Below are positions 18,453 to 33,212 of a stretch of DNA of 64,000 bases, piece after piece. Origin of the DNA: an uncultured Acidobacteriota bacterium (GTDB lineage: Bacteria; Acidobacteriota; Thermoanaerobaculia; Multivoradales; JAHEKO01). A program made the translations under genes and the position numbers. The notes under the pieces are model-generated. The model saw only the letters and a program-made list of their open reading frames with translations, searched no databases and was not told the origin of the DNA. The stretch's first letter is position 1. Each line of letters starts with the position of its first letter. The stretch lies in contig CAVQNG010000025.1 in NCBI GenBank assembly GCA_963713825.1, positions 640,001 through 704,000 of the forward strand, given 5' to 3'.

Positions 18453-19578
18453 ATGACTTCACCAGAGATCCAACAGCACCTCGAACGACTCGAGTCCCGC
18501 CTCTTGACCCTTCGGGGGTATCTTTGAGGGCACCGACCTCGAAGGACAGATCCAGACAATCGACAAGAAGATGGAGGCGCCCGGCTTCTGGGACGACCGG
18601 GTTGGCGCTGCCCCTCTGCTGCAGAAGCGTCGCAGCCTCGAGAAGCGGCTGGCGACCCTGAATCGACTGCGTGAGGACGCTGAAGAGCTGGCCGCTTGGC
18701 AGGAGCTCCTGGCAGAAGGGGAAGGCGACGACGAGGTCGATCAATTCCTCGCACGTCTCGAGCTCGAGCTGCATCAGCTCGAGTTGCAGCTCAAGCTCTC
18801 GGGATCGGACGACGACAAGAGCGCCCTGGTCGCGGTTCATCCCGGCGCTGGGGGTACCGAATCGCAGGACTGGGCCGAGATGCTCCTGCGGATGTACCTC
18901 CGTTGGGCCGAGCAGAACAACTTCGAGACCGAGCTCCTCGACCGCCTCGAAGGGGATGAGGCGGGAATCAAGAGCGCGACCTTTGCGGTACGCGGGGACT
19001 ACGCATACGGCTACTTGCACGGCGAGTCCGGTGTTCATCGGCTGGTGAGAATCAGTCCCTTCGACGCCGCGAGCCGCCGGCACACATCCTTCGCTTCGGT
19101 GTTCGTCTACCCGGAAGTCGATGACGACGTCGAGATCGAGATCAACGACGGCGACTTGCGGGTCGACACCTATCGTGCTTCCGGGGCTGGTGGTCAGCAT
19201 GTCAACAAGACCGAGTCGGCCGTGCGGATCACCCACCTGCCATCTGGCATTGCGGTGGCGTGCCAGAACGAGCGCAGCCAGCACAAGAACCGTGCTACCG
19301 CCATGAAGATCCTGCGATCGCGTCTCTATGATCTCGAGATCAGCAAGCGTGAGGCAGAAGCGGCGATCACAGAAGGACAGAAGATGGAGATCGCCTGGGG
19401 CAGCCAGATCCGAAGCTACGTCCTGCACCCCTACCGCATGGTCAAGGATCATCGCACCAACATCGAGGTGGGAGATGCCGATCGGGTGCTGGACGGGGGC
19501 GTCGATCCTTTCATCGAGTCCTGGTTGGATCAGCAGATGGGCGATCGCGGCCAGAGCGACAAGAAGCCTGCAGATTGA
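18453..19578 (+). CDS. prfB: Peptide chain release factor 2, expressed by programmed +1 frameshift
   Basis: ATG 18453 gives MTSPEIQQHLERLESRLLTLRGYL then CTT-TGA (18522-18527). The +1 frame continues EGTDLEGQIQ... into the ORF with the SPF recognition and GGQ motifs. Confidence 0.95.
18513..18528 (+). other. prfB +1 frameshift cassette (internal SD-like GGGGG, CTT TGA G)
   Basis: CGGGGG-TAT-CTT-TGA-G versus the canonical AGGGGG-TAT-CTT-TGA-C. Confidence 0.9.
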
Positions 19579-25583: not shown

Positions 25584-26981
25584 ATGGCAGAGCAACGCGA
25601 TCTCGTCATCATCGGCAGTGGTCCTGGCGGCTACGTCGCCGCGATTCGTGCCGCACAGTTGGGCCTCGGTGTCACCGTGGTGGAGAAGGACCCCAAATTC
25701 GGCGGCACCTGCCTGCACCGAGGGTGCATTCCGACCAAGGCGCTTCTCCGCACGGCGGGCATGTTGGACGACATCCGGTCAGCGGAGAAGTTCGGGATCG
25801 AAGTGGCTGCGCCGAGCTTGGATCTGGACCGGGCTCAGGCATTCAAGCAGCAGGTCGTCGACAAGAGCGCCAAGGGAATCGAGTACCTGTTCAAGAAGTA
25901 CGGCGTCGAAGGTGTTCAGGGTAGGGGCCGGCTGGTCGGTAGCCATGAGGTCGAAGTGCGGGGTGAGACCGGCACGATCACATTCGGGGCCCGCAACATT
26001 CTGATCGCCACGGGCTCGATTCCACGCCAGTTGCCGTTTGTCTCTACAGACGGCGAGCGCGTCCTGAGCTCGGACGATGTTCTGGAGTTAACGACGATTC
26101 CTGAGTCGCTGGTGGTCCTGGGCGCGGGTGCCGTGGGCTGTGAGTTCGCCTCGATCTTCAATTCGTTCGGGTCTGAAGTGGTTCTGGTCGAGATGCTGCC
26201 TCGCGTGCTGCCTCTCGAGGACGAGGAGGTCTCGAAGCAGCTGCAGCGTTCGCTGAAGAAGAGGGGAATCAAGGTCCTCACTGGCAGTCGGTTGAAAGAT
26301 GTCGTGCCGACGGGGAGTGGGCTCGAGATTGGCGTCGAGAGGGAAAAGGGAGACGGCAAGCAGTTGTCTGCCGAGGCGCTGTTGGTGGCCGTCGGGCGAG
26401 CGCCAGTGACCTCGGATCTAGGACTGGAAGCGCTAGGAATCAAGCTCGATCGCGGCTACATCGAAGTCAACGATCTGATGCAGACCGACGTGCCCCACAT
26501 TTACGCCATCGGAGATGTCGTCAATACGCCATGGTTGGCCCATGTCGCGTCGGCCGAAGGCATCCTGGCCGTCGAGCATGTGGCGGGCCAGGAGGTGCGG
26601 CCGATCGACTACGATCGAATTCCGGCCGTCACCTACTGCGATCCGGAAGTAGCCAGTGTCGGCCTGACGGAATCGCAAGCCAAAGAGCGAGGCTACGACG
26701 TCGCGACTGGCAAGTTCCCGTTCACAGCGCTGGCCAAGGCAGCGATCGAGGGTCACACCGAAGGCTTCGTCAAGGTGGTTCGAGAGAAGCGCTACGACGA
26801 GCTCCTGGGAGTCCATATCATCGGCCGCCACGCCACCGACCTGATCGCCGAAGCCTGTGTCGCTCTGCAGGTCGAATCGACGACAGAGGAGTTGTTTCGA
26901 ACCATTCATGCTCATCCGACGCTGTCGGAGGCCGTCGCGGAGGCAGCGCATGCGGCCGTCGGGCATGCGATCCATATCTGA
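25584..26981 (+). CDS. lpdA: Dihydrolipoyl dehydrogenase (E3)
   Basis: GSGPGGYVAA, GGTCLHRGCIPTK disulfide, HAHPTLSE. Confidence 0.95.
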   Translation: MAEQRDLVIIGSGPGGYVAAIRAAQLGLGVTVVEKDPKFGGTCLHRGCIPTKALLRTAGMLDDIRSAEKFGIEVAAPSLDLDRAQAFKQQVVDKSAKGIEYLFKKYGVEGVQGRGRLVGSHEVEVRGETGTITFGARNILIATGSIPRQLPFVSTDGERVLSSDDVLELTTIPESLVVLGAGAVGCEFASIFNSFGSEVVLVEMLPRVLPLEDEEVSKQLQRSLKKRGIKVLTGSRLKDVVPTGSGLEIGVEREKGDGKQLSAEALLVAVGRAPVTSDLGLEALGIKLDRGYIEVNDLMQTDVPHIYAIGDVVNTPWLAHVASAEGILAVEHVAGQEVRPIDYDRIPAVTYCDPEVASVGLTESQAKERGYDVATGKFPFTALAKAAIEGHTEGFVKVVREKRYDELLGVHIIGRHATDLIAEACVALQVESTTEELFRTIHAHPTLSEAVAEAAHAAVGHAIHI

Positions 26982-27074
26982 TGGACCTGTGGCGAGCGGA
27001 TCGATTGGCGCTGGAATCGAAGCTGACCAGGAGCCGCGAATCGGGGAATCGAGTCGAGTAAGGGAGAGACCTAC

Positions 27075-28463
27075 ATGGCGACAGAAGTCATCATGCCCGA
27101 GATGGGCGAATCCATCGCCGAGGGCACCATCACGAAATGGCTGGTCCAGGTCGGAGAGCGAGTGGAGAGAGACCAGCCTTTGTTCGAGGTTTCGACCGAC
27201 AAGGTCGATGCCGAGATTCCCAGTCCGGCCTCCGGAACCCTCCTGGTGGTGCACCACGGGGAAGGTGCAACCGTTCAGGTCAATGAGCTGGTCGCCATCG
27301 TCGGGGAGCCTGGTGAGCAACCGGAGGCCCAACCGGTGGCGGCGCCGGCTGGAGTCGAGGCCCCGGTTGTCGAGGCCTCGGAGCCCATTGAGGCCGCGGT
27401 CGAACAACCTGCTCCCGTTGCGGAGCCCGCTCCGACGCAGCAGGTAGTGGTCGGCGAAGATAGTCAGCTTGTCGACAGAATTCGTCGGTTCTCGAGTCCA
27501 CTGGTCCGCAAGATGGCGGCTGCAGAGGGGGTCGATCTCTCGCAGATCCAGGGTACGGGAATCCAGGGACGGGTGACCAAGCAGGACATGCAGGAGTACT
27601 TGGAGCGCCGATCGGCGGCACCGCCTTCGACGGCAGCCCCACCTCCCGCTGCTCCGGCTTCGCCGATGCGCACGGCAGAAGTCGTCACAGCGGCTCGACG
27701 TGCGCCAGTCGGTGACTTTCAGGTCGCTGCCTACCACGAGGGGGACAACGTCGAGATCGAGCCGATGTCCAATATCCGTCGCCTGACGGCGTCTCATATG
27801 GTCTATTCCAAGGCCACTTCGGCGCACGTCAGCACGGTCTTCCACGTCGACCTGTCCAGAGTGGCCAAGGTGAGGGCCCGCGCCAAGCGAGGCTTCGCGC
27901 AGACCCACGGTACGAAGCTCACCTTCATGCCGTTCATCTTCAAGGCGGTGGCCAACGCGCTCACCGCCTTTCCAAATCTGAATTCGTCCATCGACGGCAC
28001 CAACATCGTGCACAAGAAGGACATCAACCTGGGTATGGCTGTCGCTCTCGATTGGGGCCTTCTGGTACCCGTCATCCGACACGCCGATCGGCTCAACCTC
28101 GTTGGCCTCGCGAAGACAGCCAACGATCTGGCCGAGCGCGCCCGAAGCAAGCGTCTGAGTCCGGAGGAAGTTCAGGGCGGCACTTTTACGGTGACAAACC
28201 CAGGAGTCTTCGGCTCGCTGTTCGGTACTCCCATCATCAATCAGCCCCAGGTGGCGATCCTGGGCATCGGGGCCATCGAGAAGCGTCCGGTGGTGGTGAA
28301 CGACGACGATGGTAACGACACCATCGCGATCAAGACCATGTGTTATTTCGCTCTGACCTTCGATCATCGCCTGGTCGACGGCGCCGAGGCCGACAGCTTC
28401 ATGAATCACCTCCGGCGAACCCTGCTGGAGGAGACCTGGTCGGAGCTCGATTCGTTTCAGTAG
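27075..28463 (+). CDS. Dihydrolipoamide acyltransferase E2 (SucB/DlaT-like, one lipoyl domain)
   Basis: EVSTDKVDAE lipoyl site, SPLVRK E3-binding domain, TFDHRLVDG catalytic motif. Confidence 0.92.
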   Translation: MATEVIMPEMGESIAEGTITKWLVQVGERVERDQPLFEVSTDKVDAEIPSPASGTLLVVHHGEGATVQVNELVAIVGEPGEQPEAQPVAAPAGVEAPVVEASEPIEAAVEQPAPVAEPAPTQQVVVGEDSQLVDRIRRFSSPLVRKMAAAEGVDLSQIQGTGIQGRVTKQDMQEYLERRSAAPPSTAAPPPAAPASPMRTAEVVTAARRAPVGDFQVAAYHEGDNVEIEPMSNIRRLTASHMVYSKATSAHVSTVFHVDLSRVAKVRARAKRGFAQTHGTKLTFMPFIFKAVANALTAFPNLNSSIDGTNIVHKKDINLGMAVALDWGLLVPVIRHADRLNLVGLAKTANDLAERARSKRLSPEEVQGGTFTVTNPGVFGSLFGTPIINQPQVAILGIGAIEKRPVVVNDDDGNDTIAIKTMCYFALTFDHRLVDGAEADSFMNHLRRTLLEETWSELDSFQ

Positions 28464-28525
28464 CCGCGCCCTGGTCGAGCCCGTCGCGAGAGCACTCACG
28501 GAGCGCTCGAGACAACGGTCCACAG

Positions 28526-29218
28526 GTGAGAGGAATTACCCTGCGAGCTTTGGATTGGAGCTACCTCGGCACGCTGGACTACCGGCGATCGCTGGCGCTA
28601 CAGGAGTTACGCCGAGAGAAGCTTCGTGCCGGTCAGGCGAATGAAGCGTTGCTCCTACTCGAGCACCCTCACACCTACACGCTGGGCCGCAACGCCGATC
28701 GCGCCGACATCCTGGCCGGTTCGGATTGGTTGCAGTCCAGGGGAGTGAAAGTCGAGGAGTGTGACCGCGGCGGTCAGGTCACCTACCATGGTCCCGGCCA
28801 GCTCGTCGGCTATCCGATCCTCGACCTGAATCCAGATCGACGCGACCTGAGACGCTACGTGCGTGACTTGCAGGAAGTCCTGGTCCGTGTGTTGGCCGAG
28901 GTCGGCCTGGCCGCCGAGCCTCGTTCGAAGAGTCCTGAGATCGGCGTCTGGGTGGAGGGGAAGAAGATCGCCTCTCTCGGTGTTCATGTCAGTCGGTGGA
29001 TCACGACCCACGGATTCGCTCTCAACGTGAACACCGATCTGAGCTACTTTGCCGCCATTGTGCCGTGCGGCATCCAGGGAGTGGAGATGACGTCGGTCGC
29101 TGAGCTCACAGGAAGGAATCTGCCGCTGAAAGACCTGGCGGCCTTGTGTGTCCACCACACGGCCGAGGTCTTTCAACGTCGCCCGCTCGCCATGACTTCC
29201 GAAGAGTTGATGGGCTGA
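28526..29218 (+). CDS. lipB: Lipoyl(octanoyl) transferase
   Basis: LLEHPHTYTLGR, DRGGQVTYHGPGQLVGYP, KIASLG, IVPCG; start approximate. Confidence 0.92.
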   Translation: MRGITLRALDWSYLGTLDYRRSLALQELRREKLRAGQANEALLLLEHPHTYTLGRNADRADILAGSDWLQSRGVKVEECDRGGQVTYHGPGQLVGYPILDLNPDRRDLRRYVRDLQEVLVRVLAEVGLAAEPRSKSPEIGVWVEGKKIASLGVHVSRWITTHGFALNVNTDLSYFAAIVPCGIQGVEMTSVAELTGRNLPLKDLAALCVHHTAEVFQRRPLAMTSEELMG

Positions 29219-29640
29219 TGACCTACCGGTTCGTCGAACATACGGCCGACGTCGGTGTCGAGCTCGAGGCGAGCAGCTACGAGGGATTGCTGTCCGAGGG
29301 TCTTTTGGCGCTCACTGACACTCTGACCGAGGTCGAGCGGGTGAGCCTGGAGATCGAGCTGTCCGTCGATCTCCGTGCGCCGAGTCGTGAGGATCTTTTG
29401 GTCGGTTGGCTCAACGAGCTGGTCTACCTCTTTGATTCGAAATCGGTGCTGCTGCGCCAATCGGACATCGGAGTCGGGAAAGAAGGCGGCGAGTGGCGTC
29501 TACGGGCAACGGTAGGCGGTGAGCGCTACGATCCTGAACGGCACCGTATCAAAACGCTGATCAAGGCGGTCACCTACCACCAACTGGCGGTGAGATCATC
29601 GACGTCTGGATGGCAGGCCCGAGTCGTCTTTGACATCTGA
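29218..29640 (+). CDS. Archease (RtcB activator)
   Basis: YRFVEHTADVG N-terminal motif, WLNELVY, IKAVTYH, terminal VFDI; TGATG overlap with lipB. Confidence 0.93.
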   Translation: MTYRFVEHTADVGVELEASSYEGLLSEGLLALTDTLTEVERVSLEIELSVDLRAPSREDLLVGWLNELVYLFDSKSVLLRQSDIGVGKEGGEWRLRATVGGERYDPERHRIKTLIKAVTYHQLAVRSSTSGWQARVVFDI

Positions 29641-29732
29641 TCCGGCGATACTTGCGGTAGTAGACCGACAGGACTAGCCTCTAGAGGACAGGCACGGCAA
29701 GACCAATCGTGTTCGGGTGGAGGATCGGATCG

Positions 29733-31169
29733 ATGAGAATCGAACAGGTCGATGAGTTCCGCTGGAGGATTCCCAAGCAGGGAAAGATGCAAGTCGATGG
29801 CCTGATCTTCGCGAGTGCAGCGATGATGAGCGACATCCGCCACGACCCATGCCTTCAACAAGTCGTCAACGTAGCTCATCTACCGGGGATTGTCGGGGCT
29901 TCCATGGCCATGCCCGATATCCACTGGGGCTATGGTTTTCCCATCGGTGGCGTCGCCGCAATGGACGGCAAGAAGGGTGTCGTCTCGCCGGGCGGTGTCG
30001 GCTACGACATCAACTGAGGCGTTCGCCTCTTGCGCTCAGGTCTGAGTCGCTCCGAAATCCAGCCCAAACTGAGGCACCTCGTGACCCGCCTCTATCAGAA
30101 CATCCCAACCGGCATCGGCAAGGGCCGTGGCGATCTGCGGTTGAATCGACAGGAGCTGACAGGGGTCATGACTCGAGGGGCGGCGTGGTGCGTCGACCGG
30201 GGGATGGGCTACGAAGAGGACTTGGAGTTCCTCGAGGAGAAAGGCTGTATCGAGGGAGCGCGGCCCGATCTGGTGACGGACAAGGCCTATCAACGAGGGC
30301 GAAGTCAGCTTGGATCGTTGGGCTCGGGGAATCACTTCGCGGAAATCCAGTATGTGGCTGAAATCTACGACGAAGTTGCAGCTACCGCTTTGGGCCTCTT
30401 CGAGGACCAGGTGACTCTGACGATTCACAGTGGATCGAGAGGCCTCGGTCACCAGGTCTGCACGGACCACCTCCGGGTGATGGTGGAAGCGGCGGCTCGG
30501 TACGGCATCGAGCTACCCGATCGTCAGCTCTGTTGCGCTCCCATTCAATCCGCGGAAGGACGCCATTACCTTGGTGCCATGTCGGCGGCCGCCAACTTCG
30601 CCTTCGCCAATCGGCAGGTCATGACGCACTGGGCTCGCGAGAGTTTCATGCAGACCCTGGGCCTGGGACCCGGCCGGGCTGGGCTCGACGTGGTTTACGA
30701 TGTCTGTCACAACATCGCGAAGTTCGAGACGTTCGAGCTCGACGGTAGGAGTCGACGCCTCTGCGTTCACCGCAAAGGAGCCACCCGGGCTTATCCACCC
30801 GGTCACCCGCAGACACCCGAGGCCTACAGGGAAGTCGGGCAGCCTGTATTGATTCCCGGGGATATGGGACGCTACTCCTATGTGCTCGTGGGAACCGAGA
30901 AAGCCTACCGTGAGACCTATGGCTCCACTTGTCATGGGGCGGGCAGAAGGCTCAGCCGCAAGCAGGCCAAGAAGCAGGCGAGAGGGAGAAGACTCTTGGA
31001 GGAGCTCGAAAATGAGGGTGTTGTGGTGATGGCCGCCGGAATGGGCACGGTAGCCGAGGAGATGCCCGAGGCATACAAAGACGTCTCGGTTGTGGTCGAC
31101 GTGGTTCAAGGCGCCGGGATCAGCCGCAAAGTCGCCCAACTGAAACCGATGGGAGTGATCAAGGGATGA
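29733..31169 (+). CDS. rtcB: RtcB RNA 3'-phosphate/5'-OH ligase (archease-dependent type), 478 aa, in-frame UGA at codon 95 predicted as selenocysteine
   Basis: ORFs 29709-30017 and 30030-31169 are in the same frame, joined by AAC-TGA-GGC-GTT-CGC, giving [10 protein letters not shown][U]GVRLL. Other motifs are intact: [49 protein letters not shown], terminal KG. Confidence 0.9.
30032..30050 (+). promoter_or_regulatory. Candidate bacterial SECIS element
   Basis: GCG-CTCA-[GGTC]-TGAG-T-CGC hairpin. The apical loop starts with G, with 21 nt between the UGA and the loop. The CAGGTCTG core is identical to the apical part of the E. coli fdhF SECIS (TGCAGGTCTGCA). Confidence 0.75.
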
Positions 31170-32212
31170 GTGCCGAGAAACAGAGCGCCAGGTTCACTTC
31201 AGAGTCTATGGATGCGGCGGAGGCGACCGCTCCATCTTCTTCGGATCAACGAGCCGACGCGATTCTCGATCGCTGGCGGAGCGTGATTCCCGAGATCGAG
31301 TGGGCCGTGCAGGCGTCACTTATCGAACGGATCCGACGCCTCAAGAAGCAGCGAAAAGCCGTCATTCTGGCCCACAACTACCAGACGCCCGAGATCTTCT
31401 TTGGTGTCGCCGATTTCACCGGGGATTCGCTGGGTCTGGCGCGGCAGGGGTCCGAAACCGAGGCGGAGGTCATCGTCCTCTGTGGAGTCCACTTCATGGC
31501 GGAGACGGCGAAGATCTTGAGCCCAGAGAAGACGGTGCTCCTTCCCGACCAGGAGGCGGGTTGCTCCTTGGCCAGCTCATTAGCGGCCGGTGATGTGCGG
31601 CAGCTCCGCGAGCGCTATCCAGGAGTTCCCGTGGTGAGCTATGTGAATACTTCCGCGGCCGTCAAAGCGGAGTCCGATATCTGCTGTACCTCGGCGAACG
31701 CCGTGGAAGTGGTGCAGTCGCTCGATAGCGATCGGGTGATTCTTCTTCCGGACGAATACCTCGGCGACTACGTGGCGCGACACTCGGACGTGGAGATCAT
31801 TCGGTGGGAGGGCCGTTGCGAGGTCCATGAGCGCTTCTCTGCCGAGGAGGTGCGCGGCTATCGGCAGCAGCATCCTGGAATCCAGGTTCTGGCACACCCC
31901 GAATGTCCGAGCGACGTGCTGACGGAGGCGGATTTCGTCGGCTCGACCAGCGGCATGATTCGTCATCTCGAGAGCAGCCGGCCCGAGCGGGTCGTGCTGA
32001 TGACGGAATGCTCCATGAGTGACAATCTGGCGCTGGAGTTGCCCGCAATCGAGTTTGTTCGTCCCCGCAGTCTCTGTCCTCACATGAAGCTGATCACCCT
32101 ACCCAAGATCGCCCAGGCACTGCAGGCCCTCGAGCCGAGAGTCGAGGTGCCAGCAGCGATCGCTGCTGGCGCCAGACAGGCCCTTCAGGCGATGCTCGGT
32201 GTGAGCCGGTAG
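31166..32212 (+). CDS. nadA: Quinolinate synthase A
   Basis: ILAHNYQ, CGVHFMAE, AGCSLA, YVNTSA, CEVH, AHPEC, CPHMK; ATGA overlap with the rtcB stop. Confidence 0.93.
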   Translation: MSAEKQSARFTSESMDAAEATAPSSSDQRADAILDRWRSVIPEIEWAVQASLIERIRRLKKQRKAVILAHNYQTPEIFFGVADFTGDSLGLARQGSETEAEVIVLCGVHFMAETAKILSPEKTVLLPDQEAGCSLASSLAAGDVRQLRERYPGVPVVSYVNTSAAVKAESDICCTSANAVEVVQSLDSDRVILLPDEYLGDYVARHSDVEIIRWEGRCEVHERFSAEEVRGYRQQHPGIQVLAHPECPSDVLTEADFVGSTSGMIRHLESSRPERVVLMTECSMSDNLALELPAIEFVRPRSLCPHMKLITLPKIAQALQALEPRVEVPAAIAAGARQALQAMLGVSR

Positions 32213-32288
32213 CATATTTCTCGTGCCGTGGCGCCGCCGTGTCGAGAGTGTTCGTACCCCCGGGGCGATCGTATAAACTCGGGCTCCC

Positions 32289-33212
32289 GTGTCCGACTCT
32301 CTGGTGCAATTAGGCAAGAGCTCTACTGGCGGATCTCGAAGACAACCCCGCCCAGAGTGGCTGCGCATCCGGCTCTCGACGCCGCAGCGCTATCACGAGG
32401 TCAATGGTCTCGTCGAAGGCTTGAGCCTGAACACGGTCTGTCAGGAGGCTCGATGTCCCAACATCTACGAGTGTTGGGGCGAGCACGGTACGGCCACGTT
32501 CATGATCCTCGGCGATATCTGCACACGCCGCTGCGGCTTCTGTGCCGTGACATCGGGAAGACCCCGACCCGGGGTTGAGGCGGCCGAGCCGGAGAACGTG
32601 GCGCAGGCCGTCGCAGCGATGGAGTTGAGGCACGCGGTCATTACCTCCGTCGATCGGGACGACCTGGACGATGGCGGAGCGACTCACTTCGCCGATGTTA
32701 TCGAGGCCATCCATCACCGAACTCCTCAAACAGCCGTTGAGGTCCTGACACCCGATTTTCGGGGCGTCCCGGGGGCGTTGGACATCGTTTTGGCTGCGGC
32801 TCCGGAGGTCTTCTCCCACAACATGGAAACGGTCCCTCGGCTCTACCGAACAGCGAGACCTGGTAGCCGCTATGAGCGTTCTCTCGGATTGCTCGAGTCG
32901 GCGGCTGAGCGCCAGAACCGGGGAGAGTTCTCAGGGCGCCTGAAGACAGGGATCATGGTTGGGCTCGGTGAGAGTCCGAATGAGGTTCGGGAGACTCTTC
33001 GGGAGATCCGACAGACCGGTGTCGAGATCTTGACCATTGGCCAGTATCTGCAGCCGACTTCAGCCCATCTGCCGGTGGAGCGATGGGTCCACCCCGACGA
33101 GTTCGCGAGCTACCGTGACTTCGCCCTGTCTCTCGGGTTCGATCACTGCGAATCCGGGCCTCTCGTGAGAAGCAGCTATCACGCCCACGAGCACGTGGCC
33201 GCCTCTGGTTGA
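32289..33212 (+). CDS. lipA: Lipoyl synthase
   Basis: CQEARCPNIYEC, CTRRCGFC radical SAM motif, RSSY. Confidence 0.95.
   Translation: MSDSLVQLGKSSTGGSRRQPRPEWLRIRLSTPQRYHEVNGLVEGLSLNTVCQEARCPNIYECWGEHGTATFMILGDICTRRCGFCAVTSGRPRPGVEAAEPENVAQAVAAMELRHAVITSVDRDDLDDGGATHFADVIEAIHHRTPQTAVEVLTPDFRGVPGALDIVLAAAPEVFSHNMETVPRLYRTARPGSRYERSLGLLESAAERQNRGEFSGRLKTGIMVGLGESPNEVRETLREIRQTGVEILTIGQYLQPTSAHLPVERWVHPDEFASYRDFALSLGFDHCESGPLVRSSYHAHEHVAASG

Follow-up and report, generated by a model that had tools for sequence, protein, structure and literature searches.

An in-frame UGA and a candidate selenocysteine insertion element in an acidobacterial rtcB gene

Introduction

In the consensus model of the bacterial selenocysteine insertion sequence (bSECIS), a stem-loop sits in the coding sequence (CDS) directly 3′ of an in-frame UGA, and the model is described by a loop of 3–9 nt, a stem of 4–16 bp, a G in loop positions 1–2, a spacing of 16–37 nt between the UGA and the loop, and a minimum free energy (MFE) of −7.5 kcal/mol or lower (PMC13188914). 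A similar arrangement occurs in an rtcB gene on a 64,000-nt stretch of DNA from an uncultured Acidobacteriota bacterium (contig CAVQNG010000025.1, positions 640,001 to 704,000 of the forward strand; this whole stretch is called the window below), where a stem-loop that begins shortly after an in-frame UGA probably directs the insertion of selenocysteine (Sec). RtcB is well studied as an RNA repair and tRNA-splicing ligase, and the sequence of the window gene suggests that its product is probably a natural selenoprotein that was previously undescribed. The gene, the UGA and the two hairpins next to it are located as follows.

29733–31169, + strand: rtcB CDS read through the in-frame TGA, 478 residues, terminal TGA at 31167–31169
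30015–30017, + strand: in-frame UGA, codon 95, proposed Sec codon, aligned to Cys98 of P. horikoshii RtcB
30016–30029, + strand: proximal hairpin GAGGC-[GUUC]-GCCUC, overlapping the GA of the UGA, −7.1 kcal/mol
30032–30050, + strand: distal hairpin, proposed bacterial SECIS, 7-bp stem, bulged U at 30047, GGUC loop at 30039–30042

The distal hairpin, GCGCTCA-[GGTC]-TGAG-T-CGC, agrees with the bSECIS model (PMC13188914) in its position in the CDS, its 4-nt loop with a G in positions 1–2 followed by U, its 7-bp stem, its 21-nt distance from UGA to apical loop (30018–30038, with 14 nt to the base of the stem), and the existence of homologs with Cys at the same codon. It differs in its host family, as RtcB is not in any of the selenoprotein sources searched, and in energy it is borderline for the limit of −7.5 kcal/mol (−6.9 for the hairpin alone, −8.1 with flanks and −16.4 for 30015–30070).

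The SECIS of E. coli K-12 fdhF offers a comparison with a single well-known element. Its UGA140 is followed by 18 nt and then GGUC, and it has in common with the window the octamer CAGGUCUG, i.e., an identical GGUC loop closed by A-U and C-G pairs. In the fdhF element, U17 and G23 are reported to be SelB binding sites and U24 to be one of the few fixed positions (PMC8659212). Beyond the loop the two hairpins diverge: 11 nt separate the UGA from the 17-nt hairpin in fdhF and 14 nt separate it from the hairpin in the window, the loop is 18 nt from the UGA in fdhF compared to 21 nt in the window (one codon further), fdhF has its bulged U17 on the 5′ strand (PMC8659212) whereas in the window it is the 3′ strand that is bulged (at 30047; relatives have U, C or no bulge), and the rest of the stem has no sequence relationship. 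The initial annotation of this DNA, which called the hairpin fdhF-like, is therefore right about the GGUC loop and the two pairs that close it, and the likeness does not extend to the bulged strand, the spacing or the rest of the stem. A common binding partner has imposed this likeness, which is a matter of convergence and not of homology.

For the enzyme itself, the only Sec-containing RtcB met in the searched literature is an engineered P. horikoshii U98 protein (PMC4150793), in which Sec occupies the residue equivalent to codon 95 of the window gene (Cys98 = U95). That protein was artificial, being made from a UAG codon via EF-Tu with no SECIS involved, and it underwent self-cleavage at a nearby peptide bond (PMC4150793); the window rtcB, in contrast, is a natural gene with a UGA and a SECIS-like hairpin that are kept across species. 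RtcB has also been linked with non-standard termination through RtcB-PrfH pairs, in which it lies beside an unusual class-I release factor (PMC1586002). The window differs from these pairs, as no prfH-like gene adjoins its rtcB and the NCBIfam model release_rtcB reached 157 bits against a cut-off of 271.8 bits.

The rtcB gene and its active site

Two open reading frames (ORFs), 29709–30017 and 30030–31169, lie in one common frame with a single TGA between them, and together they make up the rtcB gene. Its start at ATG 29733 is inferred, and the frame is also open from GTG 29709 upstream. The read-through product matches Pfam RtcB (PF01139) over residues 43–478 and the full profile (1–426 of 426) with E = 3.1e-175, and its closest solved structures are T. 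thermophilus TTHA1785 and P. horikoshii RtcB (E down to 5.7e-185). When aligned to P. horikoshii RtcB, UGA95 is inside the motif GYDIN-x-GVRL and is equivalent to the invariant Cys of GYDIN-C-GVRL, with an offset that places U95 at Cys98.

This residue is central to catalysis. In P. horikoshii RtcB, Cys98 bridges the catalytic metal ions M1 and M2; its replacement by alanine abolished all ligation steps, and the residue was seen as a sulfonic acid in one RtcB crystal structure (PMC9745838). The single active-site Cys of RtcB, which bridges two Mn ions, is also described as a known weak point under oxidation (PMC9745838; PMC12263435). The metal ligands and the His nucleophile of the P. horikoshii enzyme are Asp95, Cys98, His203, His234, His329 and His404 (PMC9745838). 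Asp95 and Cys98 were aligned explicitly with D92 and U95 of the window product, which also has GSGNH(201), IH(232)SGSRG, CH(326)N and CH(401)GAGR, and the equivalence of these to the His ligands is by motif and offset.

Recurrence of the UGA in related rtcB genes

A scan of species-representative genomes gave 80 rtcB loci, and the motif around the bridging Cys is present in 78 of them (not in L054 and L079). The codon at the bridging-Cys position in these 78 loci is TGC in 52 and TGT in 12 (64/78 Cys), and TGA in the other 14. The TGA-type loci belong to Acidobacteriota (Vicinamibacterales, Polarisedimenticolia and Marinacidobacterales), Thermodesulfobacteriota or ‘Deltaproteobacteria’, Thermodesulfovibrionia, a ‘Pseudomonadota’ metagenome-assembled genome (MAG) and Eisenbacteria. 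Together with the window they form the TGA-type set (n = 15), and the Cys-encoding loci form the Cys-type set (n = 64).

Conservation of the 94 residues ahead of the TGA equals that of the remaining protein (e.g., 0.81 compared to 0.78 with L001), and a low ungapped value for L024 probably comes from an indel. The claim of the initial annotation that the codon reflects Sec recoding and not a random nonsense mutation is strengthened by the same-codon TGA in 14/78 loci and by this equal conservation of both protein halves. An archease match was found in 13/14 of the TGA-type loci, directly upstream of rtcB in all 13, and in 49/64 of the Cys-type loci (position listed for the TGA-type only). In a maximum-likelihood tree of 79 proteins the TGA-type genes are scattered, with 12 state changes needed, at least five of them forced by well-supported branches; Sec and Cys have therefore replaced one another repeatedly.

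Truncated forms of the same protein are also found in protein databases. Among the 120 best protein clusters, 22 are 379-aa forms starting xRSGLSR (88–100% identity), which are recognisable by that start as products cut at the same stop as the window rtcB, and because so many of the best clusters are truncated in this way, annotation pipelines can be said to mis-call a conserved rtcB. Full-length relatives of 478 aa (P0002–P0006) have 87–88% identity to the window product. Locus L001, the closest fetched locus to P0007 and P0008 (418/478 and 404/476 residues identical), has TGA, and the ‘C’ written in the P0002–P0008 proteins may stand for Cys or U. Furthermore, the clusters P0005 and P0006 (90% identity) each mix 478-aa and 379-aa members, i.e., pipelines call the same gene either full-length or truncated.

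In this genome TGA itself is a normal stop codon, regulated at the release factor 2 (RF2) gene and not reassigned, since 6/15 of the TGA-type rtcB genes (including that of the window) end in TGA and the RF2 frameshift site is canonical. The RF2 gene is located as follows.

18453–19578, + strand: RF2 gene (Pfam PCRF and RF-1), ATG at 18453, main ORF continuing in the +1 frame

It has an in-frame TGA at 18525–18527 after CTT and a Shine-Dalgarno-like GGGGG at 18514–18518, which is the classical CUU UGA +1 frameshift site. A search of the window for in-frame TGA codons with coding signal on both sides gave 23 candidates, of which only rtcB was judged credible, and the three that were checked are adjacent same-frame gene junctions.

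The distal hairpin in TGA-type and Cys-type genes

Both window hairpins are present in the RNAfold minimum-energy and centroid structures of 30015–30070 (−16.4 kcal/mol) and of 29985–30100, and they lie exactly where the initial annotation had placed them, including the loop, the bulge and the 21-nt spacing. In the related genes, the segments from the Sec or Cys codon to +60 align without gaps, so the same interval can be compared directly. The bSECIS rules are satisfied in 14/15 TGA-type genes compared to 3/64 Cys-type genes (L022, L031 and L047), and when the energy rule is applied to the bare hairpin the numbers are 12/15 and 3/64, with the window itself failing at −6.9 kcal/mol. A strict rule that was drawn up after the data were seen (GU in the loop, at least 6 bp, spacing of 18–22 nt) separates 13/15 TGA-type from 0/64 Cys-type genes. 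The spacing between UGA and loop is 18–22 nt and a G is found in loop positions 1–2 in all 15 TGA-type genes, and GU is found in the loop in 14/15. Neither an equal presence of the hairpin in Cys-encoding homologs (3/64 by the rules and 0/64 by the strict rule) nor its absence from other TGA homologs (14/15 and 13/15 pass), the two patterns that the initial annotation had named as speaking against its proposal, was found.

The hairpin is preserved in structure more than in sequence, with four unrelated stems in the same alignment columns: GCGCUCA/UGAG.CGC, AGGACC/GGUCCU (L042), GAAGACC/GGUCUUC (L065) and CUGAGG/CCUCAG (L010). The forms and their carriers are listed below.

GCGCUCA/UGAG(y)CGC: window and most Acidobacteriota
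Same stem, bulge-free: L029
Shortened stem form: L004
GCGCUC[CGGGUU]GAG...: L030, L034 and L035
GCGCUC[CGUGUU]GAGCGU: L015
AGGACC[GGUCU]GGUCCU: L042
GAAGACC(A)[GUU](U)GGUCUUC: L065
CUGAGG[AGCAG]CCUCAG: L010

With the window structure imposed on the alignment, 79.0% of the TGA-type cells in the distal helix are paired compared to 36.6% of the Cys-type cells, four pairs of the helix change on both sides, and its covariation score was reached by no shuffle. Third-codon-position identity among the TGA-type genes is 0.47–0.87 over codons +5 to +11, which hold the hairpin, and elsewhere it is 0.24–0.33 (+1 to +4), 0.21–0.33 (+12 to +19) and mostly 0.22–0.55 in the invariant GVVSPGGVG block upstream; the Cys-type genes have 0.26–0.42 at the same codons. 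The window hairpin also uses rare codons, TCA and AGT making up 6.9% and 9.5% of Ser codons, respectively. Protein-preserving synonymous resampling with the codon usage of the window gave an expectation of 2.40/15 genes under the four bSECIS rules and 0.40/15 under the strict rule. As the observed 14 and 13 passes are far above these values, the distal hairpin is a genuine element under selection as RNA, and it does not simply follow from the protein sequence. The influence even appears to run in the other direction, as the residues SGLS are nearly fixed in TGA-type proteins and variable in Cys-type proteins, and by this comparison the RNA structure constrains the protein sequence at SGLS.

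One relative carries a different version of the element. In the Thermodesulfovibrionia locus L010 (3280–3339) the hairpin is about 3 nt nearer to the UGA and has the loop AGCAG, and this is either a variant SECIS or a sign of a different SelB specificity.

Proposed mechanism and points against it

In the proposed mechanism, the ribosome would hold UGA95 in its A site with the distal hairpin, 14 nt downstream, at the mRNA entrance; SelB-GTP-Sec-tRNASec would then bind the apical G-U of the GGUC loop and deliver Sec at UGA95 in competition with RF2. The expected product is a full-length RtcB with a selenolate in place of the Cys that bridges the two catalytic metal ions. We put the probability that the stem-loop at 30032–30050 is a bacterial SECIS, and that SelB-delivered Sec at UGA95 gives full-length Sec-RtcB, at roughly 85%. 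The initial annotation had arrived at Sec recoding from the window alone, and that interpretation is now supported by the recurrent UGA, the co-occurring hairpin and the selection at the RNA level.

Several observations weigh against this interpretation, beginning with the window hairpin itself, which is within chance when judged alone. Its energy depends on the stretch that is folded (−6.9 kcal/mol for the bare 30032–30050 and −8.1 kcal/mol for 30031–30051, with one flanking nucleotide on each side), 23/200 dinucleotide shuffles fold as well (z = −1.15), and over the same 33 nt an equal or greater stability is reached by 54.6% of synonymous variants of the window sequence. Across the window, 267/1639 TGA triplets (16.3%) satisfy the same four bSECIS rules and 39/1639 (2.4%) a stricter rule. 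The shuffle z-score is without power here, because the genuine fdhF SECIS gives only z = +0.19 in the same test. Similarly, free energy under synonymous resampling is non-discriminating because GC-rich codons fold anyway (the window has a GC content of 62%), and geometric rules were therefore used instead. An Rfam scan of 29700–30400 with E up to 10 found no SECIS family and returned two chance snoRNA matches only.

The comparison between genes has weak points of the same kind. L003, a TGA-type gene, fails the energy rule, the loop of L010 is without GU, and the strict rule was, as said, formulated with the data at hand. RNAalifold found no consensus pairs in the 15 TGA-type or the 64 Cys-type segments; for the TGA-type set the cause is a one-nucleotide shift in register between the helices, and folding was therefore done per sequence. 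Only five independent TGA/Cys contrasts lie on well-supported branches, and these go in the same direction in 4.3 cases on average (sign test, median p 0.125), a test that could not reach 0.05 because there are only five supported pairs. In addition, two Cys-type Vicinamibacterales genes that are tree sisters of TGA-type genes, L022 (3277–3336) and L023 (3283–3342), have partial GC-rich hairpins at the SECIS position, which may be relics of a recent replacement of Sec by Cys.

The remaining points concern the cell and the enzyme. Neither the 64-kb window nor the regions flanking the 14 TGA-type loci yielded selA, selB, selD or tRNA-Sec. Moreover, the engineered Sec98 RtcB of P. horikoshii cleaved itself (PMC4150793), a sign that this site does not readily accept Sec.

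Alternative explanations

SelB-independent readthrough of the UGA is the alternative that survives best, although we consider it improbable. Here a near-cognate Trp or Cys insertion or a local suppression would read the codon, and the hairpin would be a generic stimulator of readthrough or pausing. The Sec machinery not seen in the window, the loop of L010 and the instability of the engineered Sec98 P. horikoshii protein (PMC4150793) would all be in line with it, but the codon stands for an essential metal-bridging Cys whose Ala mutant is dead (PMC9745838), and only Cys or Sec is a plausible ligand. A loop G at 18–22 nt in 15/15 genes, with GU in 14/15, fits a SelB-binding model better than a generic roadblock, and several of the TGA-type genes come from Thermodesulfobacteriota or ‘Deltaproteobacteria’, a group described as selenoprotein-rich (PMC5029168).

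Slightly less probable again is a part for the proximal hairpin, which would assist recoding as a second functional element, by covering the UGA or delaying RF2. The 14 nt of this hairpin are expected to be inside the ribosome, and unwound, when the UGA is in the A site, given the ribosome footprint, and this argues against such a part. In the window it is unusually stable (−7.1 kcal/mol), with only 4.2% of synonymous GVRL variants folding as well and a similar 4.0% in L020; the median TGA-type gene, however, is no more stable at this place than its own synonymous variants. All five proximal pairs form in only 4/15 TGA-type genes (the window, L001, L020 and L029), none of the pairs changes on both sides, and codons +1 to +4 have third-position identities at the background of 0.24–0.33. 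Proximal pairing is 70.7% in TGA-type and 49.1% in Cys-type genes, and this excess comes almost entirely from the pair with the A of the UGA; without that pair the values are 38/60 (63%) and 156/256 (61%). We judge the proximal hairpin to be an unselected by-product of the Gly-Val-Arg-Leu codons and no part of the signal. The initial annotation had left both readings of this hairpin standing, and the by-product of GVRL is the better supported of the two, over ribosome pausing or hindrance of RF2, with 4/15 complete and free third positions.

A split gene is very unlikely; translation would then restart at TTG 30030, and the resulting C-terminal protein of 379 residues would join with an N-terminal peptide of 94 residues to make the enzyme. 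The TTG at codon +5 does have a GAGG 10 nt upstream and the 379-aa protein is predicted by gene callers, but only 5/15 TGA-type genes have a canonical start (ATG, GTG or TTG) at codon +5, which is CTG in nine and ATC in one, and the 379-aa start, like that at TTG 30030 of the window, is therefore an artefact of the split. The assembled product would be without the essential bridging ligand and four conserved residues (GVRL), and the conservation of the hairpin would be left unexplained. The least likely alternative, that the TGA is a nonsense mutation, a sequencing error or the mark of a decaying pseudogene with a coincidental hairpin, can point to a hairpin that alone is within chance and to gene callers that split rtcB into 379-aa forms, but it is at odds with the same TGA in 14/78 other species-level loci from several phyla, the 22 truncated protein clusters, equally conserved protein halves, retained archease synteny and a hairpin that co-varies with the TGA.

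Genomic context

The neighbours of rtcB are archease and nadA, and this archease-rtcB-nadA block is within a lipoate and 2-oxoacid dehydrogenase cluster (window 25584–33212). The genes assigned there, in addition to rtcB, are listed below.

25584–26978: E3 gene of the 2-oxoacid dehydrogenase cluster
27075–28460: E2 gene of the 2-oxoacid dehydrogenase cluster
28340–29215: lipB-like gene
29218–29640, + strand: archease gene, Pfam Archease (PF01951) E = 8e-40, directly upstream of rtcB
32289–33209: radical-SAM lipA-like gene

Archease is a known activator of RtcB (PMC10944509), and for this reason archease and rtcB are likely to form a functional pair.

The octamer CAGGTCTG is found at eight sites in the window (2014, 5512, 10310, 23495, 30037, 30453, 55499 and 58245), with 3.28 expected and 1/100 shuffles reaching eight. 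None of the seven further sites in the window has both a stable hairpin and an in-frame TGA in a suitable position, and the excess of CAGGTCTG may be due to chance.

Novelty and biological meaning

If the distal hairpin is a bacterial SECIS, the RNA signal itself is of an ordinary kind, and the novelty probably is in the host gene, i.e., a new selenoprotein family. Full-text literature searches, with subscription-only papers and bioRxiv supplements outside their reach, gave no report of a natural Sec-RtcB. A term search of the accessible text of a 2026 selenoproteome review found no mention of the RtcB family (PMC13188914), RtcB is absent from the deep-Sep and BSepDB supplements (the large BSepDB file is possibly incomplete), and NCBIfam contains no Sec-specific RtcB model.

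In metazoa, the irreversible oxidation that inactivates Cys-RtcB is countered with PYROXD1. It is tempting, though tentative, to see RtcB as an unrecognised natural selenoprotein family, gained or lost repeatedly in at least five bacterial phyla, in which Sec would serve as a metal-bridging ligand and not as a redox catalyst, and would give oxidation resistance or a retuned metal preference. If this is true, Sec-RtcB would resist the irreversible oxidation that inactivates Cys-RtcB, or its metal preference would be retuned, and the natural protein must avoid the self-cleavage of the engineered archaeal Sec98 protein. A natural Sec-RtcB that recurs in Acidobacteriota, Thermodesulfobacteriota, Nitrospirota and Eisenbacteria would be a further selenoenzyme beyond classical redox chemistry, with Sec as a metal ligand, and it would supply natural material on the effects of Sec on the metal choice and oxygen tolerance of RtcB.

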